40,703 nucleotides of DNA from Candidatus Iainarchaeum sp. (GTDB taxonomy: Archaea; Iainarchaeota; Iainarchaeia; Iainarchaeales; JAAZKV01), in assembly GCA_018691995.1 (NCBI GenBank), contig JABHJM010000075.1, positions 1-40,703 of the forward strand, given 5' to 3'. Under the pieces are notes generated by a model that did no database searches, had not been told where the DNA came from, and saw only the letters and a list, made by a program, of their open reading frames with translations. The first letter of the stretch is position 1. Each line of letters starts with the position of its first letter. Of the stretch, positions 9,336-25,083 are shown piece after piece. Both the position numbers and the translations under genes were made by a program.

Positions 9336-9445
9336 CCCCCCTTAGTTTAGTAGCTAGAACGCTTGGCTGTAGATATCTATTATATCAGGGAAACCTGACG
9401 CAAGCTGAAACCGAGAGATCCCCGGTGCAACTCTGGGAGGGGGGA
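9336..9445 (+). tRNA. tRNA-Tyr(GUA): tRNA-Tyr (anticodon GTA) with a roughly 37 nt intron at the canonical 37/38 position; atypical D-loop and T-loop
   Basis: Hand-folded cloverleaf. Acceptor is CCCCCCT (9336-9342) / AGGGGGG (9438-9444) with C1:G72 and A73. D-stem is GTTT/GAAC. Anticodon stem is CTTGG (9362-9366) / CCGAG (9411-9415) with loop CTGTAG..A. The intron at 9373-9409 contains a TCAGG-GAAA-CCTGA hairpin. T-stem is CCCGG/CTGGG. T-loop is TGCAACT (G at position 55) and the D-loop lacks the GG pair. Confidence 0.75.
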
Positions 9446-9510
9446 TTGTACCGCAAGTTAGTAGTAAGGAGTCAGTAGTTATTGGCTCCACTAATTTGCC
9501 TAGTTCTAAC

Positions 9511-10500
9511 ATGAACAAAAAGCTTGATGATATCTATTCATCAGAAAAACGCTTTCAAAGTGCACTAAAAACACTTGAAACTTGTGGAATTTGTGAAGAA
9601 AACAAGCAACATATACAAAAATTTGTACAATCAAAAAGAGCTTGTGGAGTAAAACCAATCAGATTGAAAAAACAAGTTGCAGTACTCCGCACATTCTCAC
9701 AAATAGTTGCAAAAGACTTGGAAAATGTTACAAAAGAAGATATTGAATTATATCTTTGTGAACTTGAAAAACACAATTATTCAAGCTGGACAAAAATAGA
9801 TTACAAAGTTGTAATAAAATCTTTTTACAAATGGTTACTTGGAGAAGATGAGGTAACACCAAAACTTGTTAGTTGGATAAAAAACAAAGAACCAAGAGAT
9901 TGCATAATGCCAGAAGAACTCTTAACAGAACAAGATGTACTTAGTGCAATTAGTGTATGCCAGTTTGTAAGAGATAAAGCATTCATTCACTTACTTTATG
10001 AAAGTGGAGTAAGAATTGGAGAATTACTAACTCTTAAAATAAAACACATTACTTTTGCTGAACCAATTTCTTCAATTCTAGTTAATGGCAAAACAGGACA
10101 AAGAAGAGTGCCAATAATCAAAAGTGTTACTCCGCTCAAAAAATGGATTGAACAACACCCATACAAAGATAATCCTGAATCACTTGTTTGGATAAAAACA
10201 AATGAAAGAATAAGTAACTTAAGAGTTCAAGGAAATAGATTACCAAATTCTGTTTTGTGTTACTCCGCAGTAAAAAAATTGATTTCAGTAAACTTTAAAA
10301 TTGCAAAAGTAACAAAGAAAGTAAATCCCCACATGTTCCGCCATAGCAGAGCAACCTTTCTTGCAAAGCATCTTACTGAGGCCCAATTAAAACAATTCTT
10401 TGGATGGACCCAATCAAGTGATATGGCCGCAAGATATGTACATTTAAGTGGAAGAGATTTGGATTCAATCATGCTTCAGATTAATTCAGCATACCATTAA
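9511..10500 (+). CDS. tyrosine recombinase / site-specific integrase
   Basis: N-terminal SAM-like domain. Catalytic signatures are ESGVRIGEL (Arg), HMFRHSRAT (HxxR), GWTQ and ARYVHL (Tyr nucleophile). ATG at 9511 is preferred over the TTG at 9496 used by the track. Lies 66 nt downstream of tRNA-Tyr on the same strand. Confidence 0.9.
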   Translation: MNKKLDDIYSSEKRFQSALKTLETCGICEENKQHIQKFVQSKRACGVKPIRLKKQVAVLRTFSQIVAKDLENVTKEDIELYLCELEKHNYSSWTKIDYKVVIKSFYKWLLGEDEVTPKLVSWIKNKEPRDCIMPEELLTEQDVLSAISVCQFVRDKAFIHLLYESGVRIGELLTLKIKHITFAEPISSILVNGKTGQRRVPIIKSVTPLKKWIEQHPYKDNPESLVWIKTNERISNLRVQGNRLPNSVLCYSAVKKLISVNFKIAKVTKKVNPHMFRHSRATFLAKHLTEAQLKQFFGWTQSSDMAARYVHLSGRDLDSIMLQINSAYH

Positions 10501-10570
10501 AAAATTAGAAAGATTCTGATAGAAGTAAACTAACTTAAGCAAGTCAACTTTTTGAAATACTAGCTAGTTA

Positions 10571-10921
10571 TTATCTTAATTTCTTTATCAAACTTGTCAA
10601 CATTTTTCCAATTTTTTCATACCTCTGTGAAATTTCACCTAATTGAACACCATTAACATACCCCAAATCATTTGAAATTATTAGAAAGTTTTCTACTTCT
10701 TTGTTTGAACCATTTGCAATTACTAAAAATCTTCTAAATTCTTTTTGTGTTGCTTTCCCACAACCTTCTGCAATATTTGCTGAGATTGAAGTTACTGCTC
10801 TTCTCATTTGTGAAGTTATTCCATACTGTTCATTCATTGGAAACTTTTCTGTTATTTTGTAGATTTCTTTTACAAGTTCTCTTGATTCTTGCCACACTTT
10901 TAATTTTTTGAAGTCTTGCAT
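10571..10921 (-). CDS. four-helix-bundle protein (23S rRNA intervening-sequence protein / Avd-like family)
   Basis: The N-terminus FKKLKVWQESRELVKEIY and the central ISANIAEG motif are characteristic of this family. Confidence 0.75.
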   Translation of the reverse strand: MQDFKKLKVWQESRELVKEIYKITEKFPMNEQYGITSQMRRAVTSISANIAEGCGKATQKEFRRFLVIANGSNKEVENFLIISNDLGYVNGVQLGEISQRYEKIGKMLTSLIKKLR

Positions 10922-11196
10922 GTTTTTTCCTCCAGTTTAAACAGTGGTTTTATTTCTTCCCAGTATTCGTTCGCTCTTTTACTAAATATTTTTTCTCTTT
11001 CTTCAGATTTACTTCCAAACATACATATTGAGCGATTAATATAGGCCATCCAGATATTAGTGAAACCTTTTTCTCTCCCATAAACTTGTACTTCAAATCT
11101 TTTCTCAATATAACAATCTTCGCCAGGAACAAAGAGTTCACACCTTGCTCGCACGTTGCAAGAGTTACATTGTTTCAATCTTTCTATCATTCTCAC
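10900..11196 (-). CDS. hypothetical Cys-containing small protein
   Basis: ORF in the same operon-like minus-strand block. Overlaps its neighbours by about 20-30 nt. No motif recognised. Confidence 0.45.
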   Translation of the reverse strand: MRMIERLKQCNSCNVRARCELFVPGEDCYIEKRFEVQVYGREKGFTNIWMAYINRSICMFGSKSEEREKIFSKRANEYWEEIKPLFKLEEKTCKTSKN

Positions 11197-11563
11197 ACCA
11201 CCTATTTTTCATTAAAAAAAGAGATTGTAATTCTTGCCTTATCTCAGCAGAAATTTTGCTAAGCTCAATATGATAAGGTTCTTGATTTAATTGTTCAACT
11301 GCTCTATTTAATCGCACTATATTCAATCTGATTAACATTTCCATTGTTTTCACTACATCTAACTCTTCTTTCATTAACTCTTCAAATTGTTCTTTGTCTA
11401 ATTTACAAATTCCTCCTTGTTCAAAATCCGCACAACTATCTCTGTGAATGCAAAGATTACAAGGAAAAAATTCACACAAGTTAAAATATAATCCATGCTT
11501 TACTGCATTAATTTTTGAAACACTTTTGCCAACATCAGTTATTGGCCCTGTTTTTCCACTCAT
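11165..11563 (-). CDS. hypothetical Cys-rich protein (132 aa)
   Basis: ORF with a cysteine cluster (CEFFPCNLCIHRDSC..GGIC). No family recognised. Confidence 0.5.
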   Translation of the reverse strand: MSGKTGPITDVGKSVSKINAVKHGLYFNLCEFFPCNLCIHRDSCADFEQGGICKLDKEQFEELMKEELDVVKTMEMLIRLNIVRLNRAVEQLNQEPYHIELSKISAEIRQELQSLFLMKNRWCENDRKIETM

Positions 11564-11593
11564 TCAAACACCTCCCAGTTCGTTTTTGAAAAA

Positions 11594-13111
11594 TTAAACA
11601 TAATTATGCAACCCCTTTAACTCTTCTGCACACTTGTCACAATAATTTTTACCAGGATAACCAACAACTGAATACTTTACAAATTGTCTTTCCTTACAGT
11701 GGAAGCAAGAGTCAAGTATTGGTTGGTCTAATTCTTTTATTTTGTCTCCATTAGATAGTGTAGTTAGTGTAGTTAGTGTATTCTCTATAGGATACCCGGT
11801 TCTTTCCATGTATTCTTGAACAAGTTCTTGACTTAGCAAGTATTCTACTCCGCTTCCAACTCTTCTTTTTTTGAATAATGGTATTTTTGATATGGTTTTT
11901 CCAATCCATCTTCTAAGACTTGCTTCTTTTTCAATACCTATCTTACCTACACAAAGTTCACTAAGTTCACCAACTGAGTAAAATCTTTTTTCACTAATAT
12001 TTTCAAATAAAGAGGAAAACAATATGTATTCCCAGTTAGTTGATATATCTTCCAAGTCTCTATCTTCAAAGCATTCTTTTAGAAAAGGTACTAAGTCGGC
12101 GTATAGTTTTTCATTAATTGTTTTTGCAACTGCTAAAGGCCCGCGCACAAGTTCTAGTTGTCTATTTTTAAAATCTTTAATTTCACAATCCAAATAAGAT
12201 TCGCTTATTTTTTTCCAATTGTTTAAAACAAAATTATAACAAGAATCTCTAATTTCTTGCCAGGTTTGATCATTTTCATTAGGTTCTCTTGAGCCTTTGG
12301 TTGTTTTTGTTCTAAGCATTCTCAGAACGATGCATCTGCTAACAGTAATGCTATCTAATCCAGTTGTATTTGTAATTACTTTTGGACAGTAAACATCAAA
12401 CTTTTTTGGAACAAAACTTTGTCCCACTTTTTCATTTCTTATTGTTTGACCAGATCGTTTGTAACCCACCTTTAGCAACTGGTTTAAGACTGCTTGTTTT
12501 TCTTTTTCTAAATTCTCAAAATCATCAATCAAAAGCGTTGGCTGTAAACTATTTGTTATTCTAAATAGAGAAGATTCTGAAGGATTAGTTGCATTTATTG
12601 GATTAAAACAAATTAACTCAATTAAGTTCATCAACTTTGTTTTTCCGGATTCTTTTTCTGAATATAAAAACAAATAACCAATTGAATTGAATAAAGAATA
12701 ACAATAAGTTGAAATATCATACACCGTAACAAAGTCAAGAAACCTTTTATCTTGAACATCAATATAATAATCAAGTTTTTCTCTAATTAAATTAAATAAC
12801 TCTTCACCTTCAACTTTTTTTCCTTCTAAAAATTCTGTTATCCCGCTATTACTCCAAGTAGGACAAATTTCTAACAAAGAGTCAACATAGGTAAATCCTT
12901 TTTCTTTTAGTTCACTTGATCCTTTAGGTTTTGAATCAATTTTTATTTGACTTAAATCCACAAGCACATCTTTATTAGATAAAATAATTGCATCAGTCTT
13001 TTGATTGTCAATAATAACTGTTTTTCCAAAATAAAAATTGTTTTTGAATGCACCTTGGTTAATTTTGTATTTTGATTGTTCAACTACTTGAAATAAACTT
13101 TTCTTATCCAT
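11594..13111 (-). CDS. P-loop NTPase with C-terminal zinc ribbon; probable replication (primase/helicase-type) protein of the integrated element
   Basis: Walker A-like SEKESGKTK, Walker B LLIDDFE and a C-terminal CFHC..x17..CDKC motif. Start set at MDKKSLF (ATG complement 13109-13111), preceded by GGTGA. The track ORF extends 13 codons further. Confidence 0.65.
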   Translation of the reverse strand: MDKKSLFQVVEQSKYKINQGAFKNNFYFGKTVIIDNQKTDAIILSNKDVLVDLSQIKIDSKPKGSSELKEKGFTYVDSLLEICPTWSNSGITEFLEGKKVEGEELFNLIREKLDYYIDVQDKRFLDFVTVYDISTYCYSLFNSIGYLFLYSEKESGKTKLMNLIELICFNPINATNPSESSLFRITNSLQPTLLIDDFENLEKEKQAVLNQLLKVGYKRSGQTIRNEKVGQSFVPKKFDVYCPKVITNTTGLDSITVSRCIVLRMLRTKTTKGSREPNENDQTWQEIRDSCYNFVLNNWKKISESYLDCEIKDFKNRQLELVRGPLAVAKTINEKLYADLVPFLKECFEDRDLEDISTNWEYILFSSLFENISEKRFYSVGELSELCVGKIGIEKEASLRRWIGKTISKIPLFKKRRVGSGVEYLLSQELVQEYMERTGYPIENTLTTLTTLSNGDKIKELDQPILDSCFHCKERQFVKYSVVGYPGKNYCDKCAEELKGLHNYV

Positions 13112-13128
13112 CCTTTTCACCTTTTGAG

Positions 13129-13147
13129 TTGGGGGGTTACCCCCCAA
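13129..13147. repeat. perfect GC-rich hairpin TTGGGGGG-TTA-CCCCCCAA
   Basis: 8 bp stem and 3 nt loop read directly from the sequence. Lies between two element genes in an otherwise AT-rich context. Confidence 0.8.
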
Positions 13148-13496
13148 CACACTCGCTTACAACCCATTTGGAATTCTTTGCGTTCCCAATTACTTCATTT
13201 TTGAAGAGAAATTTCTTCCCAATCATCTGTTTGAATACCTCGGTTAAAGCGTCTCCTTCAAGGCCCATAGAATTTAATCTCTGAACCCATTCATGAAGTG
13301 AAGAACCCTTTTGTACTCGCTCTTCATTTGACCCTTTCCCAATAGACACCCACGTTTTGATTGGCTTCCAGTTCTCTTCAGCAGGACTAATTTCAATTTG
13401 AAATTGTTCCTCATAGTCCCCTCGCATTTTTGAAACATTTGTTACTGTCCCAATAAATTTATCGGGCAGTTTTGCTTCCACTACTTCTATACTCAT
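13137..13496 (-). CDS. hypothetical protein (119 aa)
   Basis: ORF whose start overlaps the upstream gene stop (ATGA). Its stop codon sits in the loop of a GC palindrome. Confidence 0.5.
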   Translation of the reverse strand: MSIEVVEAKLPDKFIGTVTNVSKMRGDYEEQFQIEISPAEENWKPIKTWVSIGKGSNEERVQKGSSLHEWVQRLNSMGLEGDALTEVFKQMIGKKFLFKNEVIGNAKNSKWVVSECVGG

Positions 13497-13681
13497 TTAA
13501 TCAACTCCTTTATTTTGATTTTACAAATATGGCGTTTTGGAATCATCAAAGTGTTAAAGTCAGTTTTAATTGTAAAAAATAGCTCATCTTCATTAGTTAT
13601 TTTTCCAAAACAGTTCAATGTTTTTGAACCATCCTTGTAAATTACCAATGCATCTAACCCAATCAATTCCTTACTTACCAT
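13493..13681 (-). CDS. hypothetical small protein (62 aa)
   Basis: ORF translationally coupled to the downstream gene. No motif recognised. Confidence 0.4.
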   Translation of the reverse strand: MVSKELIGLDALVIYKDGSKTLNCFGKITNEDELFFTIKTDFNTLMIPKRHICKIKIKELIK

Positions 13682-13740
13682 AAAACCACCAATTTTGGCT
13701 TATGAGAGTAAGAAAAGTCAGTTTAAGTGTGCCCTTGTGT

Positions 13741-14382
13741 CTACATTCCTTCTTTGAAAAAACGATTGAATTTTCTTAGTGTATTGTACTTTTTTGGAAG
13801 TTGTGAATTTCCTTTTATTCCTTTGAAAAAAAGTTTAAATGCATCAAATTTTGAAGGAGGTACTGGCGCATATCCAAGGAATTTAGCATATTTAATTCCA
13901 TCATTAGCATAATCCCATTTTTTTATTATTTTTTTAAACTCAGATAGATAATCAACCTTATTTTTATTCAAGTCACAAACCAAGTATTCCTGACAATAGC
14001 GATTCCCTTGTTTGTCCCAATAAGGAAAAAACACACTTGGTTCAGTTTGACAAACTAATAACTTTTCTTTTTTGACTTTTTTTCCAACTCTAACACTTTT
14101 CCTAAATATTACACTATTGCCCCTAATTTCTGGTTTAGGTTTTGTAGGCTTTAAGCCATTTTCAACCCAATGAATTAAAGAAACCACTTCCAAATCAACA
14201 TGTTTTAACATATTTTTTTCATCTTTAATTTCCCTTTCAAAAAATTGAATTACATTTAAATCTAGATTTTGTTTTTTTACATCACTTAATCGGCGTTCAA
14301 GATTATCAATTCTGTGTTTATGCCCTTCTTCAAGTTGTTTTAATAAACGATTTTTAAATTTACTTAAATCTTCACTAACCAT
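13741..14382 (-). CDS. hypothetical protein with N-terminal coiled-coil (213 aa)
   Basis: First gene of the minus-strand block. No motif recognised. Confidence 0.55.
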   Translation of the reverse strand: MVSEDLSKFKNRLLKQLEEGHKHRIDNLERRLSDVKKQNLDLNVIQFFEREIKDEKNMLKHVDLEVVSLIHWVENGLKPTKPKPEIRGNSVIFRKSVRVGKKVKKEKLLVCQTEPSVFFPYWDKQGNRYCQEYLVCDLNKNKVDYLSEFKKIIKKWDYANDGIKYAKFLGYAPVPPSKFDAFKLFFKGIKGNSQLPKKYNTLRKFNRFFKEGM

Positions 14383-14480
14383 ATAACTAACCTAACCTTA
14401 AAGTAAAGTAATGATACTCAACCTAAACATTAATAGAAGAAAAAGTTATTTAAGTTGTAATTATCTTCCAAAACTATTTA

Positions 14481-14505
14481 TGCAACTCTTGAAAAGAGAG
14501 AATTT
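14481..14505 (+). repeat. R1: decayed copy of the tRNA-Tyr-derived core (putative attR of the 5 kb element)
   Basis: TGCAACTCTTGAAAAGAGAGAATTT compared with TGCAACTCTGGGAGGGGGGATT; the differences are mostly G to A. Confidence 0.55.
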
Positions 14506-14561
14506 GTTTACAAATCATCACAACCACTAGTTTTAAATAATAAAACAAAGTTCTAATTAAT

Positions 14562-16532
14562 ATGAAAAAAGTTGTTATTCTATTTATTTGCATTTTAACA
14601 TTAACCTTCCTATTAGGCTGTACAGGTATAGAAAGTATGATAAAAGAAAATAAAGAGTTAAAACCATATTTTGAATCCCACCCAAATGCCGAATTAAAAA
14701 ATATAACACAACTAACACAAGAAGAATTTGAAACAGAAAAAACATTTTGGGAAGAAAATTGTGAAAAGCAAATAAACTCTGGAAATTATTACAAAACAAT
14801 ATATGAAGATGAAACCACAAGAGCCCTAATACTATCAGAACCAGGAAACCAAGAAATAATCTGCATAATAGAACAAGAAATAACTTTAAACCAAAACAAT
14901 AACAATTCAAATAACCCACAACCAACTGACATTAACAATTCAGCATGTACTGAAAATTGGAATTGCACAAACTGGTCAAATTGCGACAACAACAACCAAA
15001 CACGAACATGCACAGAACTTAACCAATGTGGAACTGATACAAACAAACCAATAGAAAATCAAACCTGTTTATCTACCCCAGAAACATGTACAGAAAATTG
15101 GACATGTACAAATTGGAGCGAATGTATAAATGAATTACAACAAAGGACTTGTCAAGTTGTAAAAGATTGTCCCGATATAAATAATCAACCAGCAATACAA
15201 CAAAGCTGTTCAACCCCACAGATAAATATTGATGAAGAATGGACCATATTTAAAAATAATTTAACTGCAATGTTAAATCATAATCTTTCATTAGCAAATA
15301 CTTACACTTATGAAGACTATAATCTGGACTCATGTATTGCATCAAGTGGAGAAGATGCTTGTTGGGAAATGGTAGATTCTGTTTACTCTTTATCAAATGA
15401 TTTAGCAAAAGAAGATTTTGAATTTGTGGAAAGAGATTCAAAACAAAGTGTTATCTCAACAAACATTTTTGAACAAGATGGACAAAATTATGTAAGACAA
15501 ATAATTTTTGCTAAAAATAGTCAAAATAATTTAGTAATTGTGAAACTTATTTACCAAAAAAGTTTTGGAACCGACACTGATAAAGATGGTTTACATGATG
15601 AAAGAGAAAATTGCTTGGGAGCATACCAATATGATCCTTCTTGTGAAATAACAAGCATTACTAAAAAAGATACTGATGAAGATGGGTGGTGGGATTCAAC
15701 CGAAGAAGAAGCTGGAACAAACCCCAATGATTCATCCGATTACTTATTTAAAACAACAACACAGGATTGCCAAGAATCATGGTATTGTGAATGGTCAGAT
15801 TGTAATTTAGGAACACAAACAAAAGTTTGTTATGATACAAGCCCAACCAAATGTGGAGATTTTAGCAATGCTCCAACAGGAACCCAAAGTTGCACTTATT
15901 GTGGAGACAATGTTTGTAATGGAAATGAAGACTATGCTTCTTGTTCAAATGATTGTAATAGGCCAAGTAGCTGGGGCATGACAAATTATATTGGAACCGC
16001 CCCATTAACTGTTACTGCAACAGGATATTGTGCTACTAGTGGATGCACTTTGACTTGGGGAGATGGAAATACCGAAACTGTTTCACTAGGAGAATTTACT
16101 AAAACCCACACATATATAACAAATGGATATTATTCATCTGTATTTTCTGATAAACCAGGATATATGGTACTACCTGGGATTGGTGTAACAGTTAATCCAA
16201 ACACTGTGCAAGAACTAGCATGTAATAGCATTAGTGCTAACTCTCAACAAATTTCTTTGGGAGGCTCAGTAACATTTACTTTGAATGTAACCAGAACAAA
16301 TACCGGTTCAGTATATGGAGTAAATCATTGCACAAATTCAACTTATCAATCATATTCATTCAATTGTACTGGAACAATAGATAGACAAGGACAACCCCCT
16401 TCACCAAGAACATGCACATATGTTTGTGAAAACTTTACTCAAAGTGCAACAATTCAACCAAGTGTAAGACAATATTCTGGTTCAACACCAATTGATGCAA
16501 TTTGCTCTGCACTTGACATAAATGTTGCATAA
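14562..16532 (+). CDS. secreted Cys-rich lipoprotein (656 aa) with repeated CxxxWxCxxWxxC modules and Asp-rich calcium-binding-like repeats
   Basis: Signal peptide with lipobox (LTFLLGC). Three copies of the CTENW.CTNWS.C..Q.RTC-type module. DTDKDG / DTDEDG motifs and a YCGDNVCNGNEDYASCSNDC module. Confidence 0.8.
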   Translation: MKKVVILFICILTLTFLLGCTGIESMIKENKELKPYFESHPNAELKNITQLTQEEFETEKTFWEENCEKQINSGNYYKTIYEDETTRALILSEPGNQEIICIIEQEITLNQNNNNSNNPQPTDINNSACTENWNCTNWSNCDNNNQTRTCTELNQCGTDTNKPIENQTCLSTPETCTENWTCTNWSECINELQQRTCQVVKDCPDINNQPAIQQSCSTPQINIDEEWTIFKNNLTAMLNHNLSLANTYTYEDYNLDSCIASSGEDACWEMVDSVYSLSNDLAKEDFEFVERDSKQSVISTNIFEQDGQNYVRQIIFAKNSQNNLVIVKLIYQKSFGTDTDKDGLHDERENCLGAYQYDPSCEITSITKKDTDEDGWWDSTEEEAGTNPNDSSDYLFKTTTQDCQESWYCEWSDCNLGTQTKVCYDTSPTKCGDFSNAPTGTQSCTYCGDNVCNGNEDYASCSNDCNRPSSWGMTNYIGTAPLTVTATGYCATSGCTLTWGDGNTETVSLGEFTKTHTYITNGYYSSVFSDKPGYMVLPGIGVTVNPNTVQELACNSISANSQQISLGGSVTFTLNVTRTNTGSVYGVNHCTNSTYQSYSFNCTGTIDRQGQPPSPRTCTYVCENFTQSATIQPSVRQYSGSTPIDAICSALDINVA

Positions 16533-16537
16533 ATAAA

Positions 16538-16590: not shown

Positions 16591-16634
16591 ATCCAAACCA
16601 ACTAATTTTTATTTAAATTAAACCTTATCATTAT

Positions 16635-17311: not shown

Positions 17312-17376
17312 CCCGACAAGGGAAGCACCCTGAGAAGAAAGAATAATATTAAATAGAACTAATTCTTATAAATAAT

Positions 17377-18030: not shown

Positions 18031-18047
18031 AATTTAAATTGATAATT

Positions 18048-18530
18048 ATGAAAAAAACAATTTGGATATTAACAATTTTGACAATATTTATTTTATCCTT
18101 TGGTTGCCTTGAAGCACCAACTGATACTTCCAAAGAAGCTAATCAAGCAAGAGCTGAAATTCTTACAAAAATAAATCAACTTGAAAATAATCCCACTTTG
18201 ATTGAATTAAAAAAATGCAATAGTGAATTTAAAAATATGGCAGAAAATAGTTCAACAGAAGAAACATTAATAGAAAAATATAATAAATGCAAACCCTTGT
18301 CTGACCAAGCATTGACTGAAGGCAAAATTGTTGCACAAGAAATTGAATCATATTATGGCACAGTAAGCCAAACATTTGATTATGAAGTACAAACATATCT
18401 GCAACAAGCAGTAATAATTTATTATGACTCAACACTTGAACCTGAAAGCATTGCATTTGATGTTATCCCATGCACAGTAGCTCCAGTTTCTGCAGCGTGT
18501 AAAGCAAAAGCTTTTGAAAGATTAGAATGA
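18048..18530 (+). CDS. lipoprotein (160 aa), function unknown
   Basis: MKKTIWILTILTIFILSFGC lipobox. ATG at 18048 is preferred to the TTG at 18039. Confidence 0.7.
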   Translation: MKKTIWILTILTIFILSFGCLEAPTDTSKEANQARAEILTKINQLENNPTLIELKKCNSEFKNMAENSSTEETLIEKYNKCKPLSDQALTEGKIVAQEIESYYGTVSQTFDYEVQTYLQQAVIIYYDSTLEPESIAFDVIPCTVAPVSAACKAKAFERLE

Positions 18531-18536
18531 ATTTTT

Positions 18537-18602
18537 ATGACCCACAAACCACTTACCTCTAACAACCAACCAGCACAATGTGCAATTCTGGGAGGGGGGA
18601 TT
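18537..18602 (+). repeat. R4: repeat copy
   Basis: ATGACCCACAAACCACTTACC..AATGTGCAATTCTGGGAGGGGGGATT. It has the conserved right flank TATTCAAAAAAATCACTCCGAGCAGAAA. Confidence 0.9.
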
Positions 18603-18637
18603 TATTCAAAAAAATCACTCCGAGCAGAAATGCAAGA

Positions 18638-18645
18638 TTTATATA
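18638..18645 (+). promoter_or_regulatory. TATA box candidate (TTTATATA) for the 18668 cassette gene
   Basis: Ends 22 nt upstream of the ATG. The same spacing is seen at 19884-19891 and 22429-22436, and implies leaderless or near-leaderless mRNAs. Confidence 0.4.
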
Positions 18646-18667
18646 TTAAAAAGAAGTTGAATATAAC

Positions 18668-19264
18668 ATGAAAAAAACAATTCTTGTACTAACACTTCTA
18701 ATAATTGGAATATTCTTGTTTGGGTGCACTGAAAATCCACCCCCTCAACCAGTATGCGGAGATGACCAGTACTATGATTCTGGTTTTTGTGTTTCTTTCT
18801 TGAATATGACTGAGCAAGAATCAAAAAATTATTTAAAAAATGAATCAAATCCTTTTGGAATAATAAACTGGTCTTTTAATGAAAAAAATGAAATGGAAGT
18901 TACAATAAAGAATAAATCTAATGTTTCTTTGAAAGTAGAAGTGTTTGAAATTGGGCTTAAACAATATAACTCAAATGCATTTTATGATTTAACAAATGAA
19001 AATATACAAACTCCTCTTAAAATATATGAAGATGTTTCAGGAATAGGCGTGGCTAAAGTTCTTGAACCAGAAGAAACAACAATTATTATTATTGACAAAA
19101 TACACCTTTATGATGATAATCAAGAATCTTTATTTACTGGCCCGCCAAAAGGAATCTGTTCAGCAATACCAAGATTAGATTTTATACCTCTTATTTCATA
19201 TAAAAATACAGAAGGACAGATACAAGCACAAAAGGAAAAAACACCTTTGATAATTTCTTGTTAA
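18668..19264 (+). CDS. lipoprotein (198 aa), function unknown
   Basis: MKKTILVLTLLIIGIFLFGC lipobox. The signal-peptide DNA is clearly similar by eye to that of the 17377 gene (identity not calculated). Confidence 0.75.
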   Translation: MKKTILVLTLLIIGIFLFGCTENPPPQPVCGDDQYYDSGFCVSFLNMTEQESKNYLKNESNPFGIINWSFNEKNEMEVTIKNKSNVSLKVEVFEIGLKQYNSNAFYDLTNENIQTPLKIYEDVSGIGVAKVLEPEETTIIIIDKIHLYDDNQESLFTGPPKGICSAIPRLDFIPLISYKNTEGQIQAQKEKTPLIISC

Positions 19265-19277
19265 AAAAATTAATTTT

Positions 19278-19339
19278 ATGAGCTACAAACAAAAAACAAC
19301 TAACCATACTTCCCCGTGTGCAATTCTGGAGGAGGGATT
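19278..19339 (+). repeat. R5: repeat copy
   Basis: ATGAGCTACAAAC..CTTCCCCGTGTGCAATTCTGGAGGAGGGATT. Confidence 0.85.
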
Positions 19340-19393
19340 TAAACCCACTCACAGAAAGATAAGTATTAAATAAAACCACCCCTTTATTTTAAA

Positions 19394-19819
19394 ATGAAAA
19401 TAACAAAAATTACTTGGATAATTACAATGATAATTATGACAGGGACCCTAATATTTTCCTTAATTGGCAATTTTTTATTTGGAGCAATGGCTTTAGTTTT
19501 TTTAAAACACCAACCATTAAGTTTCTACACTATTGCCCCCTTTACTAGCCCAATAATGACCTTAATTTTAATAATTGCATTTATTTTATTCTATAAAAAA
19601 AATGTTTTTGGATTTTTTCTCTCAATATTATATGGAGTTTTGGTTTTACTTGCTTGGTTTATCATAGCTATAGACTTACAATATGGAAACACATTGATAG
19701 AAACATTATTTCAAAATGGAATGTATTTCCCATACATAGCAATTCCAATTTTAATTTTTACAATACTTTCAAAAAATATATTTGATTTCAGCAAAATAAA
19801 ACTTGTGATAAAAAAATGA
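19394..19819 (+). CDS. hypothetical 4-TM membrane protein (141 aa)
   Basis: Four hydrophobic segments. The stop TGA lies within the ATGA of R6. Confidence 0.65.
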   Translation: MKITKITWIITMIIMTGTLIFSLIGNFLFGAMALVFLKHQPLSFYTIAPFTSPIMTLILIIAFILFYKKNVFGFFLSILYGVLVLLAWFIIAIDLQYGNTLIETLFQNGMYFPYIAIPILIFTILSKNIFDFSKIKLVIKK

Positions 19820-19878
19820 ACTACAAACTTCTCACTACCAACCATCCTCCCCCGCGTGCAACTCTGGGAGGGAGGATT
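19816..19878 (+). repeat. R6: repeat copy
   Basis: ATGAACTACAAAC..ATCCTCCCCCGCGTGCAACTCTGGGAGGGAGGATT. The arms ATCCTCCC (19844-19851) and GGGAGGAT (19870-19877) are perfectly complementary. Confidence 0.9.
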
Positions 19879-19883
19879 TAACC

Positions 19884-19891
19884 TTTTTATA
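19884..19891 (+). promoter_or_regulatory. TATA box candidate (TTTTTATA) for the 19914 cassette gene
   Basis: Ends 22 nt upstream of the ATG. Confidence 0.4.
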
Positions 19892-19913
19892 GTAGAATAA
19901 CTCTTTTTATAAT

Positions 19914-22337
19914 ATGAAGAAAATAATTTTAGTAATACTAATACTCCTAGTTTTTGGATTACTCTTTGGATGCGATGAACCAATATGCGGAAATGGGCTT
20001 TGTGAAACTGGAGAAACAGAACTAACTTGTTCAATTGATTGCGAACAAGTAGACTATTGTGGAGATGGAATATGTAATGGAAATGAAACAACTAATACAT
20101 GCCAAGAAGATTGTCCTTCTGACTTAATAACTGTTGAAGGAACATACTCTGGATTTTATAATTTTCCAAGAAACTTTTTTGATGAATCTAATTTAACACC
20201 AACAGAGGTTGTAGAAGTTACAGACCAAATTTATTTACTTGAAGTAGAACTTTCAGGAGGAAAAATACTCTTTGATTCATATCTTAAAGTAGAATATATC
20301 CCAGAAGTTTATGGAATGACTACTGAAGATGGTTTTGCATTAGGCGATGCGGCTTTCCCATCAAACAATAATAACCAACATGCATGGGATGTTATTTCCC
20401 ATGAAATAGGACATGCATTTTGGGCCAATAGCAACTTTTATTATACTCTGGCAGTTCCTGGTCCGTTCTTACAAGAAGCAACTGCAGTTTTAACTGCACA
20501 ATATGTTTATGAAAAAATTAAAGAGGAACCAGACAATTTTAATTTATCACAAGATGCAGTAGAAAGCTTAGGCCTGGTTTACACTGATGAAAGAAATTAT
20601 CAAAAATCAAGATATGAAGAATATATTTCTTTAGGGATGCCGTACAGCCAAGATGAATCAGGCCCAAATTACGCGATTCTAACAAGTCAAGCATTAAACT
20701 ACAAATGGTTTTTGATTGGAGATGAATATGGTTGGAAAAAATTTCAAAAATTTTATAATGGATTTTCATACGACTTAAAAGATGACTTTACTTTTTGGGA
20801 AGATGGAGTATCAGATATTGAAGAAACAACATACATGGTTGCTGCACTTAATGTTGCTTTTGAACAAGATTTCAGACAAGACTTTTTAGATTTAAACTTT
20901 CCAATAGATAACACATTATATTCTAAAATTTATCCAATAATATCAGATTATATTAATCCAAACAAACCAATAAATTTAATTATTGAAACAAATAATTTTA
21001 TTGAAAATGGCGAAATTGATATCATACACTTACCTTCAAATTTAGACCCGCTTGAAGTAAAATTTTATTTAGAAAATGACCTTGAAAAACAAAAAATTGA
21101 TTTTAACGATTTAGAAATTAAACTATACCCCCCAATTGACCATAACCCAAGCCCTCTAATTGACCCATATTACCAAGTTGAAATATTATCCAATGGAACA
21201 CTCAAAGCAAGAGGAAATAGTTTTGTTTATTTACAAGCAAATTTAAAATCAACTCCTAGTATCAAATCTGAAAAAACATTAGTTATTATTGGAGAACCTG
21301 AAGAAATAGAGAACGGAGAGGTTCTTACAATACTTCCAAGAAATTACTATCCTGAAGCACCAGACAACCAATGTGAGATAGATATGAATTGTTTTCCAGG
21401 AAATAAAATTTATGATCGATTTGGAGAAATTAATTATCACGAAGTCTGTAATGAACAAGAATGTATTTATGAAACTGGAAAGTATTGTGTTGAAAATAAT
21501 GAAAATACTTTTTGTTCATACAAAGAACAAGGCAGATATCCAATTTATTTTATGTTAGATAATTATGAATTCTCAAATATGATTAACTTGTTTTATAATA
21601 TTGAATCGCAATTATACAATGAATTTGACCCATATCCAAACTCAAAACAAGTTTTAACAGTTCTTGAAATTCCAGGCCATTGTGGAGGAAATAATAATCC
21701 ACTTGAAACCTCAGGAAGCTGTTACATTAATACAAATGATGGATCCCCCCAATACGACATAATAATACATGAAATGGGACATAATTTTGCTGACAAATCA
21801 AAAGGATTGTACACTTTAATGCATTCTAATAATGATTTAGTAAATCAACTTGGTTTTGGAGAATGTGTTGCTTCACTGCCAGTTCAATATATTAGAGCAA
21901 AACTCAGAGATTCTCCAAAAGATTATAATATTAGCTTTGACTCATACGAATCAAAAGTATTTGGAGCAGAACAAACATTTGACGACTCATTAAACAAACA
22001 AAGATTTGAATTGTTTGAACAGAGAATTCTTGACAAAAATATTTCTGGAATTCACGATCTTGGTGGAGATGTTAGTACTATGTGTAGTTTATTTGTAACT
22101 CCCGCAGCATATCCAAACGATTTCAATAATAATTATGGATGGGAATTTTACAAAAGATTTTTAGGATACTTTGGAGATAACCTTTTAGAAAATTTTGAAG
22201 AAACCAAAAGTGAAACATACTTTGCTGCAACTTATAGTGCAGCAATCGGAAGAGATATGAAAAATAAATTCATTTTCTGGGGATTTGAAATTGATGAAAC
22301 TTATTTTGACAAAATTTATAATCAATTAAAAGATTAA
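19914..22337 (+). CDS. secreted lipoprotein with two zincin-type (HExxH) metallopeptidase-like domains (807 aa)
   Basis: Lipobox LLFGC. N-terminal CGNGLCETGE..C..DC and CGDGICNGNE..C..DC modules. Two HExxH motifs: VISHEIGHAF and IIIHEMGHNF. Confidence 0.75.
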   Translation: MKKIILVILILLVFGLLFGCDEPICGNGLCETGETELTCSIDCEQVDYCGDGICNGNETTNTCQEDCPSDLITVEGTYSGFYNFPRNFFDESNLTPTEVVEVTDQIYLLEVELSGGKILFDSYLKVEYIPEVYGMTTEDGFALGDAAFPSNNNNQHAWDVISHEIGHAFWANSNFYYTLAVPGPFLQEATAVLTAQYVYEKIKEEPDNFNLSQDAVESLGLVYTDERNYQKSRYEEYISLGMPYSQDESGPNYAILTSQALNYKWFLIGDEYGWKKFQKFYNGFSYDLKDDFTFWEDGVSDIEETTYMVAALNVAFEQDFRQDFLDLNFPIDNTLYSKIYPIISDYINPNKPINLIIETNNFIENGEIDIIHLPSNLDPLEVKFYLENDLEKQKIDFNDLEIKLYPPIDHNPSPLIDPYYQVEILSNGTLKARGNSFVYLQANLKSTPSIKSEKTLVIIGEPEEIENGEVLTILPRNYYPEAPDNQCEIDMNCFPGNKIYDRFGEINYHEVCNEQECIYETGKYCVENNENTFCSYKEQGRYPIYFMLDNYEFSNMINLFYNIESQLYNEFDPYPNSKQVLTVLEIPGHCGGNNNPLETSGSCYINTNDGSPQYDIIIHEMGHNFADKSKGLYTLMHSNNDLVNQLGFGECVASLPVQYIRAKLRDSPKDYNISFDSYESKVFGAEQTFDDSLNKQRFELFEQRILDKNISGIHDLGGDVSTMCSLFVTPAAYPNDFNNNYGWEFYKRFLGYFGDNLLENFEETKSETYFAATYSAAIGRDMKNKFIFWGFEIDETYFDKIYNQLKD

Positions 22338-22341
22338 GGTT

Positions 22342-22390
22342 ATGAACAAGAGTATGAGAATCCCAATGTGCAACTCTGAGAGGGGGGATT
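22342..22390 (+). repeat. R7: repeat copy with a shortened spacer
   Basis: ATGAACAAGAGTATGAGAATCCCAATGTGCAACTCTGAGAGGGGGGATT. The arms AATCCC / GGGATT are complementary. It has the conserved right flank TTCCAAAAAAAATCACACCGAGCAGAG. Confidence 0.85.
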
Positions 22391-22428
22391 TTCCAAAAAA
22401 AATCACACCGAGCAGAGAATAGAGTAGC

Positions 22429-22436
22429 TTTTTATA
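22429..22436 (+). promoter_or_regulatory. TATA box candidate (TTTTTATA) for the 22459 cassette gene
   Basis: Ends 22 nt upstream of the ATG. The sequence AGTTCTAATTAATATGAA between the box and the start is identical to that upstream of the 14562 gene. Confidence 0.4.
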
Positions 22437-22458
22437 CTAAAACTCAGTTCTAATTAAT

Positions 22459-23193
22459 ATGAAGAAAACAATTGTTATTTTTGGACTAGTTTTACTAGGA
22501 TTATTTTTATTTGGTTGCACTGAACAACCAGTTACTTGTGAAACAGATTCTGGTTGTGGAGTAGCAAGCTTTTCTGAAAACTATTGTAATGGAACAGAAG
22601 TACAAAGAGATTATATTGAACCTAAATGTGTTTTAAATTCAGACAAACAAACCTGTGATGAGATTAGAACTCCAGAAAAAATTAAAGATTGTGGACCAAC
22701 TCCAAAAGGATGTAGAAATGGAGATTGTGCAGAACTAAGTTGTACTGAAATCACTGGAGCTGTTTGGATTGGCGGAGCACCAATATCAAGAGTTTATTTT
22801 GATACTCCAAGACAAAACAAAATCTTAAATGTTGTAGTAATGAATGATACAAACAGCACTTTTAAAATACATATTTTTGATGACAATTCAGGAATGCCTG
22901 GAGATAAATTATTTGAATCTAAAGAATTCAATGACAATGATTTAACTATTGATGGTTGGGCAAAAGTTGATTTGACTGGAATAAGCTCAATGGAATCAGG
23001 ATACTATTTTATTGGAATTGAAAATACTTCAGAAAATATGATGACTTCACATTTCAATGGATGTGTATATGATGACAAAAATCCAGAAACTTATAATCTT
23101 GAAAGAATGTTTATTATTGATGGAGAAATAAGTGAAAAATTTGATAATCCTGAAATAATGCCTGAAAGAGATATTGTTTATATCTTTGAATAA
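22459..23193 (+). CDS. Cys-rich lipoprotein (244 aa), function unknown
   Basis: MKKTIVIFGLVLLGLFLFGC lipobox, followed by a cysteine-rich N-terminal module. Confidence 0.75.
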   Translation: MKKTIVIFGLVLLGLFLFGCTEQPVTCETDSGCGVASFSENYCNGTEVQRDYIEPKCVLNSDKQTCDEIRTPEKIKDCGPTPKGCRNGDCAELSCTEITGAVWIGGAPISRVYFDTPRQNKILNVVVMNDTNSTFKIHIFDDNSGMPGDKLFESKEFNDNDLTIDGWAKVDLTGISSMESGYYFIGIENTSENMMTSHFNGCVYDDKNPETYNLERMFIIDGEISEKFDNPEIMPERDIVYIFE

Positions 23194-23198
23194 ATTTT

Positions 23199-23254
23199 AT
23201 GAACTACAAACTAATAACCATCCTTCCCCGTGTGCAATTCTGGGAGGGGGGATT
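23199..23254 (+). repeat. R8: repeat copy
   Basis: ATGAACTACAAACTAATAACCATCCTTCCCCGTGTGCAATTCTGGGAGGGGGGATT. It has the right flank TTCCAAAGAAAATTCAACCGAGCAGAAT. Confidence 0.9.
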
Positions 23255-23319
23255 TTCCAAAGAAAATTCAACCGAGCAGAATAAACATAATTAAATATAA
23301 CTAAGTTTCTAACAATAAC

Positions 23320-23700
23320 ATGAAAAGAAATTTAGTAATTGTAGTTATTGTAATAATCATTATCTTATTTATTTTAGCTTCAATTTCTCCAATGACAGAT
23401 TATAATTCAGGAACCGCTTGTCCTTACAGAACAATAAGAAGTGACTGTTTAGGCATCAAATTTCCAAGCAGTGCTTTAACACTTGGCGGACCAAGCCAAG
23501 TTTCTTGTTTAGGATTAATTTCAAATACAAAATGTTATATCAATGAATGCCCTTCTAGCTCAAAAATAAGGTATGAAATTCCTTGTGATTCAGTAAAAGG
23601 AGATTTTAGAGAAGTTTGCATGAACAACATTGATGCTTTTTCACAAGATACCAATTCCAAATATCACTGTTGTAACCTAGTCAGAAATTTATGTGATTAG
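23320..23700 (+). CDS. small Cys-rich secreted or membrane-anchored protein (126 aa)
   Basis: N-terminal hydrophobic segment followed by 10 Cys in the ectodomain. Confidence 0.65.
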   Translation: MKRNLVIVVIVIIIILFILASISPMTDYNSGTACPYRTIRSDCLGIKFPSSALTLGGPSQVSCLGLISNTKCYINECPSSSKIRYEIPCDSVKGDFREVCMNNIDAFSQDTNSKYHCCNLVRNLCD

Positions 23701-23702
23701 CA

Positions 23703-23765
23703 ATGAACCACAAACAACACACTACTCACAACTCTTCCACATGTGCAATTCTTTAGCGGCATGAT
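23703..23765 (+). repeat. R9: repeat copy with a decayed 3' G-arm
   Basis: ATGAACCACAAACAACAC..CTCTTCCACATGTGCAATTCTTTAGCGGCATGAT. The left motif and loop are conserved but the G-tract is lost. Confidence 0.65.
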
Positions 23766-23819
23766 ACTCCACAAACATTTAAATACCTTATTTACCTTAT
23801 ATAAGTTAAAGGTGATTTA

Positions 23820-24023
23820 ATGGTAAATATGACTTTAGCAATCCCAAAAGAAGTCCATGAAAAAATGAAAGCTCACAAAGAAATAAAGTGGACAGAAGTT
23901 GCAAGAGAAGCAATACAAAAAAAATTAACAATACTTGAAACAGAAAAAGACCCACTAAGATTATATGCATACAAAAGATGGGCAGAAGAAGGAGAAGACG
24001 CACATGAACTCTTCAAATTTTGA
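23820..24023 (+). CDS. putative antitoxin (67 aa) of a MazF/PemK-type pair
   Basis: Small ORF preceded by GGTGAT that overlaps the toxin start by 20 nt. An alternative start is the ATG at 23829 (MTLAIPKEV). Confidence 0.6.
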
Positions 24024-24369
24024 ACAGGGAGACATAGTAGTAGCACAAGTCCTCTTTTCAGAACAAATTGGGTTAAAGACTAGACCAGCGTTAGTAATAA
24101 GCAACACAAAATACAATAAAAAATCAGAAGATATAATTTTATTAAAAATAACTTCACAGTCCAAACGTACAACTTATGACATTAACCTAAACAATAAAGA
24201 TTTAGAAAATGGAGAACTAACAAAACCAAGCATGATAATGATTGATAACCCAGTAACAACTTACAGAGGAATGATAAGTACAAAAATAGGAAAAATAACA
24301 AACACAAAACTAAAAGAAGTAAAGAAAAAACTTAGTGAACTTTATGAACTGCAAACTAAAAACAACTAA
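24004..24369 (+). CDS. MazF/PemK-family toxin (endoribonuclease-type), 121 aa
   Basis: The N-terminus [28 protein letters not shown] matches the PemK/MazF signature (GDIV...RPalVi). Start at the ATG at 24004 rather than the track start at 23965. Confidence 0.7.
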
Positions 24370-24403
24370 CTCTTCTCCGTGTGCAACTCTGGGAGGGGGG
24401 AGT
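24344..24403 (+). repeat. R10: repeat copy; the left part overlaps the toxin 3' end
   Basis: ATGAACTGCAAACTAAAAACAACTAACTCTTCTCCGTGTGCAACTCTGGGAGGGGGGAGT. The arms ACTCTTCTC (24369-24377) and GGGGGGAGT (24395-24403) are complementary. Confidence 0.85.
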
Positions 24404-24482
24404 AAAACCAACTAATTTTAACCGGCACGTAACTAACGATATATTTATATATCATTTTGATATACTTTATTTAGGTGATTTG

Positions 24483-24749
24483 ATGGCGAGAACATTAATA
24501 GATTTACAAGGACCGCAGGAATTAATACTTGAAAAAGCTTTAGAACTTGGATTATACAAAACAAAAGCAGAAGCTGTGCGTGGCGCAATAAACGATTTAG
24601 GAAAAGAATATAAAATCTTTAAGGATGCTCAAGGACTTGAAGATGAACTAGTTGCAAGAAAAATGCTTCGAGAAGAAAAAGAAATAAAAGCAGGAAAAAG
24701 AAAAATACTAAGTGAACATGAAGTAAAGAAAAAATATGGTTTCAAGTGA
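24483..24749 (+). CDS. putative antitoxin (88 aa) of a RelE/ParE-type pair
   Basis: ATG at 24483 is preceded by AGGTGAT. The track ORF start at 24381 is a GTG inside repeat R10 and is rejected. A toxin gene follows 6 nt downstream. Confidence 0.6.
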   Translation: MARTLIDLQGPQELILEKALELGLYKTKAEAVRGAINDLGKEYKIFKDAQGLEDELVARKMLREEKEIKAGKRKILSEHEVKKKYGFK

Positions 24750-24755
24750 TTACTA

Positions 24756-25016
24756 ATGTATAACCTTGATTTCAAAGAAGATTGGGATAAATATTTCAAA
24801 AAAATGAACAAAGAAATGCAATCAAAAATTTGGAAAAAAATTCAACAATTACAAGAATTAGAATCTGCAAGACATCTAAAAAAAGGACTACCCTTCTTTG
24901 TTGTAGAAACAAACCAATACAGAATAACATTCCGAGAGATTGGAAAAACAAGAACCGTTTGGTTTGCAGGAAACCACAAACAATACGAAAAATGGTATTT
25001 AAGTTTAATGAAGTGA
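24756..25016 (+). CDS. RelE/ParE-family toxin-like protein (86 aa)
   Basis: Size, position after a small partner gene, and the C-terminal YRITFREIGKTRTVWFAGNHKQYEKW all resemble RelE/ParE toxins. Confidence 0.6.
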   Translation: MYNLDFKEDWDKYFKKMNKEMQSKIWKKIQQLQELESARHLKKGLPFFVVETNQYRITFREIGKTRTVWFAGNHKQYEKWYLSLMK

Positions 25017-25020
25017 GATT

Positions 25021-25083
25021 ATGAAAAACTACAAACCAAAAACAACCAACTCTTTCCCGTGTGCAATTCTGGTAAAGGGGATT
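25021..25083 (+). repeat. R11: last, diverged repeat copy and distal boundary of the island
   Basis: ATGAAAAACTACAAACCAAAAACAACCAACTCTTTCCCGTGTGCAATTCTGGTAAAGGGGATT. The arms CTCTTTCCC / GGTAAAGGG remain complementary. Confidence 0.8.

Follow-up and report, generated by a model that had tools for sequence, protein, structure and literature searches.

We analyzed a stretch of 40,703 nucleotides (nt) from Candidatus Iainarchaeum sp. (positions 1 to 40,703 of contig JABHJM010000075.1; hereafter the window) and found, behind a tRNA-Tyr gene and an integrase-bearing element, an array of short co-oriented gene units closed by sites that copy the tRNA's 3' end. The host is an archaeon of the Iainarchaeota (DPANN), the genes flanking the locus are archaeal (class III signal peptide, split RpoB, and wyosine synthase), and the G+C content of the window is ~31%. 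An earlier sequence-only reading had likened the locus to an integron and listed 11 copies of the tRNA 3' end, R1 to R11; we retain this numbering. The tRNA gene, the integrase gene, the sites, and the genes between them follow in order, with protein lengths in amino acids (aa).

9336-9447, plus strand: tRNA-Tyr(GUA) gene with an intron of ~36 nt at 9374-9409 (Rfam tRNA model, 40.2 bits, match 9336-9445)
9511-10500, plus strand: intact gene of a Xer-like tyrosine integrase, 329 aa (Pfam Phage_integrase, 2.8e-20, and SAM-like domains)
14481-14505, plus strand: R1, degenerate site with an exact TGCAACTCT at 14481-14489 and a G-poor remainder (read directly)
14562-16532, plus strand: 656-aa predicted lipoprotein with Cys-rich repeats, between R1 and R2 (open reading frame, ORF, and translation)
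16538-16590, plus strand: R2, decayed junction-like sequence (by eye)
16635-17243, plus strand: 202-aa membrane protein gene (TATA at -27)
17237-17313, plus strand: R3 junction, left arm, CCCCGTG, T-loop, and tRNA 3' end (nhmmer E=3.4e-19)
17377-18530, plus strand: cassette of two lipoprotein genes, 17377-18030 and 18048-18530 (ORFs)
18534-18604, plus strand: R4 junction (nhmmer E=2.4e-17)
18668-19264, plus strand: 198-aa lipoprotein gene (TATA at -30)
19275-19340, plus strand: R5 junction, G run short by a 1-nt deletion (nhmmer E=3.6e-17)
19394-19819, plus strand: 141-aa membrane protein gene (ORF)
19815-19880, plus strand: R6 junction (nhmmer E=6.1e-18)
19914-22337, plus strand: 807-aa lipoprotein gene with zinc-protease-like motifs (weak Reprolysin matches)
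22342-22393, plus strand: R7 junction, good core and atypical left arm (nhmmer core match E=9.1e-07)
22459-23193, plus strand: 244-aa lipoprotein gene (ORF)
23196-23256, plus strand: R8 junction (nhmmer E=1.3e-17)
23320-23700, plus strand: gene of a 126-aa Cys-rich secreted or membrane protein (ORF)
23703-23752, plus strand: R9 hybrid junction, standard left arm and GTGCAATTCT, then a different right arm, TTAGCGGCATGATACT (nhmmer half match)
23820-24369, plus strand: MazE-like antitoxin (23820-24023) and MazF/PemK toxin (to 24369) (Pfam PemK, 3.9e-15; NCBIfam)
24341-24404, plus strand: R10 junction (nhmmer E=6.6e-18)
24483-25016, plus strand: probable toxin-antitoxin cassette (weak HigB_toxin match)
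25022-25085, plus strand: R11 junction, last of the array, G run partly decayed (nhmmer E=1.8e-14)

The segment copied along the array is the T-arm and 3' acceptor strand of the tRNA (9416-9447, the last 32 nt). Searching with its last 27 nt (9421-9447; the 27-mer) and allowing at most three mismatches returned four further copies, with none expected by chance; a 23-mer with at most five mismatches returned seven. A junction profile, built from 15 junctions and run over the whole window with nhmmer, recovered the tRNA itself (core only, at 9418) and nine copies, R3 to R11, every one on the plus strand. The matches start at 17237, 18534, 19275, 19815, 22360, 23196, 23703, 24341, and 25022, of which the one at 22360 covers just the core and the one at 23703 just the left half; the profile had no match elsewhere in the 40.7 kb, and R1 and R2 went undetected even at E<=1. 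R3 to R11 are thus upheld from the original list, while R1 and R2 fall below detection, and the positions first assigned to the copies mark the start of the left extension, not that of the 27-mer. R2 is plausibly a decayed copy of the junction, judged by eye. R1 may represent what decay has left of the integrase element's distal end; it is too far gone to be recognized as a clean distal attachment (att) site of that element. R3-R6 and R8-R11 all have the left extension ATGAACYACAAAC. The right extension TTCCAAAAAAAATCACACCGAGCAGA, formerly counted in four copies, is clear in three (R4, R7, and R8), and R3 and R10 match it at ~61-63%. As first described, each of R3 to R11 lies directly behind a plus-strand gene or gene pair.

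From its left end, a unit consists of the 3' half of a tRNA copy, GGGAGGGGGGATT, a dyad-forming right arm, a TATA box, and one or two genes; toward the right end follow a T-run, the left arm, the half-site CCCCGTG (one base off the tRNA's CCCCGG), and the T-loop TGCAAYTCT. The left arm opens with ATGAACYACAAAC and contains two AACYACAAAC-type repeats spaced 21 bp. Core and right arm form an imperfect dyad that falls into two sequence classes with compensating inner-stem changes, and 88% of the cells in the dyad alignment are paired, against 33-61% with slid partner columns. Unit sizes in the window range from 0.5 to 2.5 kb, and at least nine units stand behind the integrase element. Outside the toxin-antitoxin cassettes, eight of nine first genes have a TATA box at -27 to -30 relative to the ATG (seven cassette genes and the R1/R2-flanked 656-aa gene make up the count), and its position at about -30 implies mostly leaderless mRNAs. 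The two toxin-antitoxin cassettes have it at -39/-42, together with a Shine-Dalgarno sequence. The proposal that each unit brings its own TATA box was confirmed at these first genes.

The left arm and core can also be read as a short ORF, M-N-H/Y-K-x-x-T-T/S-N...P-C-A-I/T-L-G-G-G. In ~17 of 21 junctions (R3-R11 of the window and those of the comparison loci L004, L007, L012, and L019), the distance from its ATG to the T-loop is 38, 41, 44, 47, 50, 53, or 56 nt, all 2 mod 3. Variability across the codon positions of this frame is not coding-like by our own reading of the sequences, and a profile of the peptide against 5.8 billion proteins found only stand-alone ORFs of 37-54 aa and no longer protein.

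Predicted lipoproteins are encoded by six cassette genes, or seven with the R1/R2-flanked 656-aa gene, and their signal peptides are nearly alike (MKKTI..LFGCTE) while the mature parts are unrelated. Three further cassette genes encode membrane or secreted proteins, and two cassettes are toxin-antitoxin-type pairs; in the last of these, 24756-25016 has a weak RelE/HigB-like match below the cutoff, and the gene at the antitoxin position (24483 to 24749) has no family match. A distant homologue of the 656-aa lipoprotein occurs at the same locus in L014. The large lipoproteins (14562-16532, 19914-22337, and one at 6442-7410 of the oriented L007) have short Cys-rich repeats in common (CTENWNCTNW; YCGDxxCNGNE; CGNGLCExGE) and are otherwise unrelated. 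The picture of co-oriented, integrase-less units with integron-like content, confined to this one locus, held up in our analysis.

The tRNA-Tyr gene was missed by ARAGORN, and we set its intron and exon boundaries from the intron-less homologue in L018. It acts as the attB/attL of the locus, and an exact-match scan with one genome per species found the core almost only in metagenome-assembled genomes (MAGs) of Iainarchaeota/Diapherotrites. On the left, the hotspot is bounded by PAP2 and the intron-containing tRNA-Tyr, and the PAP2-tRNA-Tyr order is kept in 10 loci. On the right stands a conserved gene block:

25345-27038, plus strand: 119-aa gene, 176-aa membrane protein, and ZIP transporter (synteny with L014 and L003; Pfam Zip)

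The order of 119-aa gene, 176-aa gene, ZIP transporter, and metallo-beta-lactamase is syntenic in L014 and partly so in L003. The flanks are syntenic, and the 119-aa gene stands at different distances behind the tRNA (2.3 kb in L014 and ~4 kb in L003, compared with 15.9 kb in the window); the region 9448-25340 is therefore a variable insert at a conserved hotspot. Contigs from other samples that are 100% identical to the window stop inside the tRNA at 9355, 9373, and 9411 (three assemblies), and three independent other-sample assemblies start at 25013, the left edge of R11. These ends fit alternative array alleles in those populations; the same 100%-identical contigs yielded no alternative joins that would represent strain-level empty sites of the window genome. 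Three scans of IMG/VR for free viral or plasmid forms gave nothing but one chance match inside a coding region.

The T-loop of the tRNA-Tyr reads UGCAAYU in the window (9426-9432) and in all Iainarchaeota tRNA-Tyr loci (L002-L015, L031, and L034), with a G replacing U55, which nearly all tRNAs have. Among relatives with the same exons, the intron ranges from 0 nt to ~36-40 nt to >100 nt: it is missing from L012 and L034 and exceeds 100 nt in L004, L006, L007, and L014. In L010, L015, and L009, a second T-loop-like motif, AGTGCARTTC, lies 10-20 nt past the tRNA 3' end and adjoins a second, more distant type of integrase (40-47% identical).

Arrays of the same type, with the same left arm, core, and right arms, were found in L003, L004, L007, L011, L012 (the same as L018), L019, and L037. 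The array-bearing MAGs include JABIDZ01, CAZUCF01, CAYWUL01, and CAZPWC01, and Saanich Inlet samples are among the sources of L012, L016-L019, and L037. A tRNA-Tyr gene precedes the array in L003, L004, L007, L011, and L012; L019 and L037 are fragments with no tRNA on the contig. The sequence-only reading had proposed looking for cassette presence/absence and reshuffling in relatives, and the outcome was positive: the related genomes carry different cassettes between the same flanks, with swaps at the core and one duplication. The shortest units in these arrays measure ~450-650 nt. Neither R3-R11 of the window nor the L003, L004, L007, L011, and L012 arrays yielded an integrase homologue or fragment.

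Cassettes that are 95-100% identical stand beside different neighbors, with the switch at the core, and the rearrangement is therefore recent. L012 and L019 are 100% identical rightward from the GTGCAATTCT of one core over hundreds of bases, and their left-side cassettes are unrelated; cassettes C-D of L012 recur in L037 behind a third, different neighbor cassette. Toxin-antitoxin cassettes are common to L004 and L007 (86% nt identity) in different surroundings, and the MazEF-type pair of the window recurs in the L007 array (72-75% aa identity), again in a different context. L007 also contains an internal duplication of 646 nt, comprising a cassette and its junctions, with the copies 94% identical.

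The arms reassort in the same way. Most junctions have the standard left arm continuing, at GTGCAAYTCT, into the tRNA 3' end, but it is joined instead to TTAGCGRCAYGAYACT in R9 and L004, to TTAAACCAGTGG in L012, L019, and L037, and to TTGGAGAT in L007, where in addition a second left-arm type stands before the TTAGCG arm. The R9-type right arm occurs also in L004 and twice in L007, and the three unrelated right partners begin at the identical base after ...TTCT. Nearly all cassette junctions, in all genomes, read CCCCGTGTGCAA, with an extra base, against CCCCGGTGCAA in the tRNA, and we conclude from this difference that the left half moves along with the cassettes and that only the right half is swapped with the tRNA. 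As judged from the sequences, the homology breakpoints appear to flank TGCAAYTCT. Swapped neighbors, together with arms recombining around a constant GTGCAAYTC(T), indicate site-specific exchange in the T-loop; the patterns of arms and cassettes are those expected from att sites exchanging at a short crossover region and point to its placement at the T-loop.

Some junctions carry an insert of 62 nt exactly between GTGCAATTCT and GGGAGGGGGGATT (L012 3516-3577; L019; L037 ~1482-1543 and ~2857-2918), with a related piece in L004 (~4760-4831). Two hairpins in the insert, GTGGTAC/GTACCAC and GTTCGCC/GGCGAAC, are perfect, and the T-loop-like AACGTCT forms its end. Taken together with the tRNA end, its 3' part looks like the 3' half of a tRNA that has a long variable arm. 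The insert might be a cassette without a gene (an empty cassette), a piece of tRNA that was displaced, or a small RNA.

The sequence-only reading had placed a tyrosine recombinase gene directly beside the tRNA, as we also found. The R, HxxR, and Y motifs of the integrase are visible in its sequence. Members of its family (~2100 homologues, mainly in DPANN and other archaea) usually begin just ahead of a DIY.SEKRL motif, and because this start coincides with the ATG at 9511 the gene is intact. No TATA box precedes it (9448-9510 of the window). Its frame stays open upstream as far as the 3' exon of the tRNA, the 9448-9510 spacer is conserved in L031, and several homologues have been extended by gene callers into the tRNA or its intron; the integrase gene may be transcribed together with the tRNA. 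Behind it, on the other strand, lies the remainder of an integrative element of ~5 kb:

10571-14382, minus strand: seven-gene block of the integrase element (Pfam, PHROGs, NCBIfam)
10571-10921, minus strand: Avd-like four-helix-bundle protein of the "23S rRNA intervening sequence protein" family (family scans)
11594-13150, minus strand: 518-aa protein of the block with a P-loop-like motif by eye

Cys-rich small proteins complete what we recognized in the block. An Avd-like block accompanies the integrase in L034 (77% nt identity), where 5.9 kb of other genes part the two, and a similar block is present in a contig of 366,784 nt from another genome of the same sample (JGI sample 3300072015). 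In that contig, too, the integrase element is followed by an array, and the element is placed after the PheRS genes. Following the same 37-aa junction ORF, its genes encode 240, 139, 247, and 105 aa, compared with 240 and 105 aa in L037, a difference that is probably a two-cassette insertion or deletion.

The integrase gene is mobile. Its L031 counterpart is 90% identical in aa to the window copy, compared with 34-63% for the neighboring host proteins; five array-bearing loci have no integrase beside the tRNA; and L031, L034, and L036, which carry close homologues, show no array within 7-11 kb. For these reasons the integrase belongs to a visiting element at the hotspot, and the initial idea of a fixed platform with one resident recombinase has to be given up.

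Three other identities of the integrase or its element were rejected. An SSV-type (Sulfolobus spindle-shaped virus) partitioned integrase was suggested by the left-arm ATG frame and by the frame open from the tRNA into the integrase gene; the family starts at the DIY motif, homologues with long N-termini owe them to gene callers that read through into the tRNA exon or intron, and the left-arm peptide occurs only as the stand-alone ORFs described above. The best-matching model is archaeal XerA, and a role as the XerA chromosome-dimer resolvase is contradicted by the score (110 bits, against a cutoff of 220) as well as by the 90% versus 34-63% identities. The Avd-like gene suggested a diversity-generating retroelement, and no reverse-transcriptase match turned up when the ORFs of the element were scanned with Pfam, PHROGs, and NCBIfam.

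We interpret the locus as probably an accretion array at an Iainarchaeota tRNA-Tyr hotspot, composed of att-flanked, integrase-less cassettes moved in trans. A Xer-like tyrosine integrase would target the T-arm of tRNA-Tyr, binding the two T-stem strands as inverted sites and exchanging DNA within the T-loop, (G)TGCAAYTC(T); Williams reportedly described the T-loop, in 2002, as the usual sublocation for tRNA-targeting tyrosine integrases. A small integrase-bearing integrative element would have inserted at the tRNA, and such elements and the integrase-less att-flanked cassettes would both use the same T-loop. Newcomers would insert at the tRNA and shift older units outward, and the cassettes would behave as cis-mobilizable elements that are inserted, deleted, duplicated, reordered, and exchanged between lineages at the T-loop. 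Catalysis would most likely be provided in trans by the window integrase's family whenever one of its elements is present. The sequences show the sites, their confinement to this locus, the variable content of the hotspot, the reassortment of arms and cassettes, and the mobility of the integrase gene; we infer the window integrase as the enzyme, the circularization of single cassettes, and the exact cleavage positions. As in tRNA-targeting integrative elements, a tyrosine integrase adjoins an intact tRNA whose 3' part is repeated distally, though the att-bounded units do not each have an integrase of their own. As in cis-mobilizable elements, the units are flanked by the att sites of an integrase-bearing element and lack recombinase and transfer genes.

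Several points weigh against this interpretation. The data consist of contigs only, and no circular-cassette or empty-site junction was observed in them. The integrase is absent beside the tRNA in most array-bearing loci, which makes the assignment of the enzyme circumstantial. The site expected at the distal end of the integrase element, R1, shows heavy decay and lacks a tRNA-like left half-site, and the worst-decayed sites belong to the two units nearest that element, a pattern not expected if simple insertion at the tRNA were all that happened. Within otherwise identical DNA, a 20-nt patch of one left arm has been replaced in a gene-conversion-like manner, and homologous recombination between junction repeats of 25-70 nt could give the same neighbor swaps. 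Finally, most of the comparison loci are MAG or metagenome contigs, in which assembly errors at repeats cannot be fully excluded; countering this worry, identical stretches came back in independent assemblies.

The single complete integrase element at the tRNA and the decay of R1, R2, and R11 would suit a fossil island, in which the junctions are scars of separate integrations of full integrase elements, deletions have left the cargo, and the units are now immobile. Such a history goes by the name of "gene capture" or tycheposon island; published examples of tandem integration include degraded remnants and partial tRNAs in scattered places (10.1101/2020.12.28.424599; PMC8371274), and in L005 a 27-aa remnant of an integrase directly follows the tRNA. 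We consider it unlikely: no fragment of the window integrase was found inside the array loci examined (the remnant is in L005, behind the tRNA), the units keep to a single tight layout of arm, promoter at -30, gene, and second arm down to sizes of ~450-650 nt, and the near-identical cassettes beside different neighbors attest recent rearrangement. We give distinctly little credence to a different scenario, that an old att scar became an intergenic module of terminator and promoter and that the array has since grown and been shuffled through gene conversion and unequal crossing-over while no site-specific enzyme acts on it today. The tandem two-cassette duplication in L007, the replaced left-arm patch, and the promoter and signal-peptide sequence common to the lipoprotein cassettes are what repeat-driven homologous recombination would leave. 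It accounts poorly for hybrid junctions that join unrelated arms at the same T-loop-adjacent base in at least three independent combinations, for sites common to unrelated types of genes, and for shared cassettes in distantly related genomes.

It is very improbable that the repeat acts at the RNA level, with the tRNA-like tail serving as a signal for mRNA processing, stability, or termination (for instance as a tRNA-like minihelix). Each copy does follow a gene and is preceded by a T-run, and the conserved imperfect dyad has the paired-cell excess and some compensatory changes reported above. Yet single-sequence folds are no better than those of shuffled sequences (z-scores +0.7 to -1.7), on which ground we rejected a minihelix or other junction RNA fold; the copies also lack the 5' acceptor strand, and the motif occurs only at a single locus, next to the tRNA it derives from, with arms that reassort at the DNA level. 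A true IntI/attC integron shares with the array its co-oriented cassettes of one or two ORFs, each closed by a recombination site, and its toxin-antitoxin content. Membership tests refute it, and we assign it practically no weight: the integrase scores 47.5 bits with TIGR02249 (cutoff 265) and 21.9 bits with NF011946 (cutoff 435), the R''/R' box pair (RYYYAAC ... GTTRRRY) occurs in none of the nine junctions, and the junction dyad is unrelated to it. Moreover, the integrase is co-oriented with the array, mobile, and often absent, there is no fixed attI/Pc platform, and the cassettes carry their own promoters, as seen from the TATA boxes before the first genes examined.

Beyond the accretion array, we tentatively entertain a stronger form of it, as a possibility we would not yet favor: that the locus is a working, convergent counterpart of the integron in Iainarchaeota. 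Anchored at tRNA-Tyr, it would have a class of site to itself, a T-loop crossover between conserved arms with a foldable dyad, and its single-gene, promoter-bearing cassettes, chiefly of surface lipoproteins and toxin-antitoxin pairs, would be individually excised, captured, reordered, and passed between lineages in trans by a Xer-like integrase. DPANN genomes are tiny and the cells are attached to hosts, and surface proteins and defense genes likely decide which partners and viruses they meet. If genes are indeed exchanged one by one at a single tRNA, the locus would be a compact engine for varying surface and defense functions, and integron-like gene capture could be built from ordinary parts of tRNA integration, without IntI or attC. 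The site is short and sharply delimited, and the integrase is a small protein. A tRNA 3'-end copy combined with conserved arms, used as a search logic, could reveal similar arrays at other tRNA genes.

The best-known relatives of an accretion array are bacterial. In cis-mobilizable elements (CIMEs), in the accretion of streptococcal integrative and conjugative elements, and in composite staphylococcal cassette chromosome (SCC) islands, att-flanked DNA without an integrase is excisable by the integrase of a related element. These cases usually comprise one or a few units of several kb, with no long array of promoter-bearing single genes. The window array resembles the CIMEs and SCC composites in its integrase-less, att-flanked DNA, which in those systems can be mobilized singly or in composite form.

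The claim that nothing like the array had been described was too strong, as tandem islands at the 3' ends of tRNA and transfer-messenger RNA (tmRNA) genes that include integrase-less units are known (PMC3146451; bioRxiv 10.1101/2020.12.28.424599). The closest described case is that of the tandem ssrA (tmRNA) islands of Dehalococcoides (PMC3146451). There, as here, many direct repeats of a small-RNA 3' end downstream of the gene bound tandem islands, an extra conserved motif lies beside the repeat and outside the target gene, insertion in the T-loop was inferred, and some units, lacking the integration module, were put forward as cis-mobilizable elements that accretion had brought together. The Dehalococcoides islands differ in being bacterial, in using the serine recombinase DsiB, in measuring kilobases to tens of kb, and in that most have a six-gene integration module (PMC3146451), whereas the window array has an archaeal host, a Xer-like tyrosine enzyme, and one- or two-gene units of 0.5-2.5 kb without a recombinase. 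The tycheposon islands of Prochlorococcus likewise involve tRNA-targeting tyrosine recombinases and tandem elements parted by partial tRNAs, with newcomers pushing older elements inward and remnants scattered among flexible genes (bioRxiv 10.1101/2020.12.28.424599). Tycheposons differ in their integration and replication modules and in cargo of up to 10 kb or more, and their partial tRNAs are scattered scars, not a regular single-gene series with conserved arms (bioRxiv 10.1101/2020.12.28.424599).

For archaea, tRNA genes are described as gathering integrated DNA flanked by tRNA fragments (SSV-type "gene capture"; She et al. 2001-2004, cited in PMC8371274; PMC7253208), and tandem integration at one locus has been noted (PMC8371274). 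Unlike in SSV-type capture, the integrase gene in the window is unsplit, and no long protein starts with the left-arm/core peptide. Our literature search found no description of such arrays in DPANN archaea, an absence that is no proof. Archaeal MAGs are reported to contain classical integrons of the IntI/attC type (PMC9668308). With chromosomal integrons the window array has in common small co-oriented cassettes, toxin-antitoxin cassettes, shuffling, duplication, and one site with an imperfect dyad per cassette; unlike them, it has no IntI, attC boxes, or attI/Pc platform, its promoters are its own, its site derives from a tRNA T-arm, and its recombinase resides on a mobile element that is often absent. 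The array differs from all these known systems in its single-gene, promoter-bearing units with conserved arms, its regularity, its DPANN host, and its content of lipoproteins and toxin-antitoxin pairs. It is a variant of the tRNA/tmRNA-anchored tandem-island and cis-mobilizable-element theme, integron-like in outcome and not a member of the integrons.

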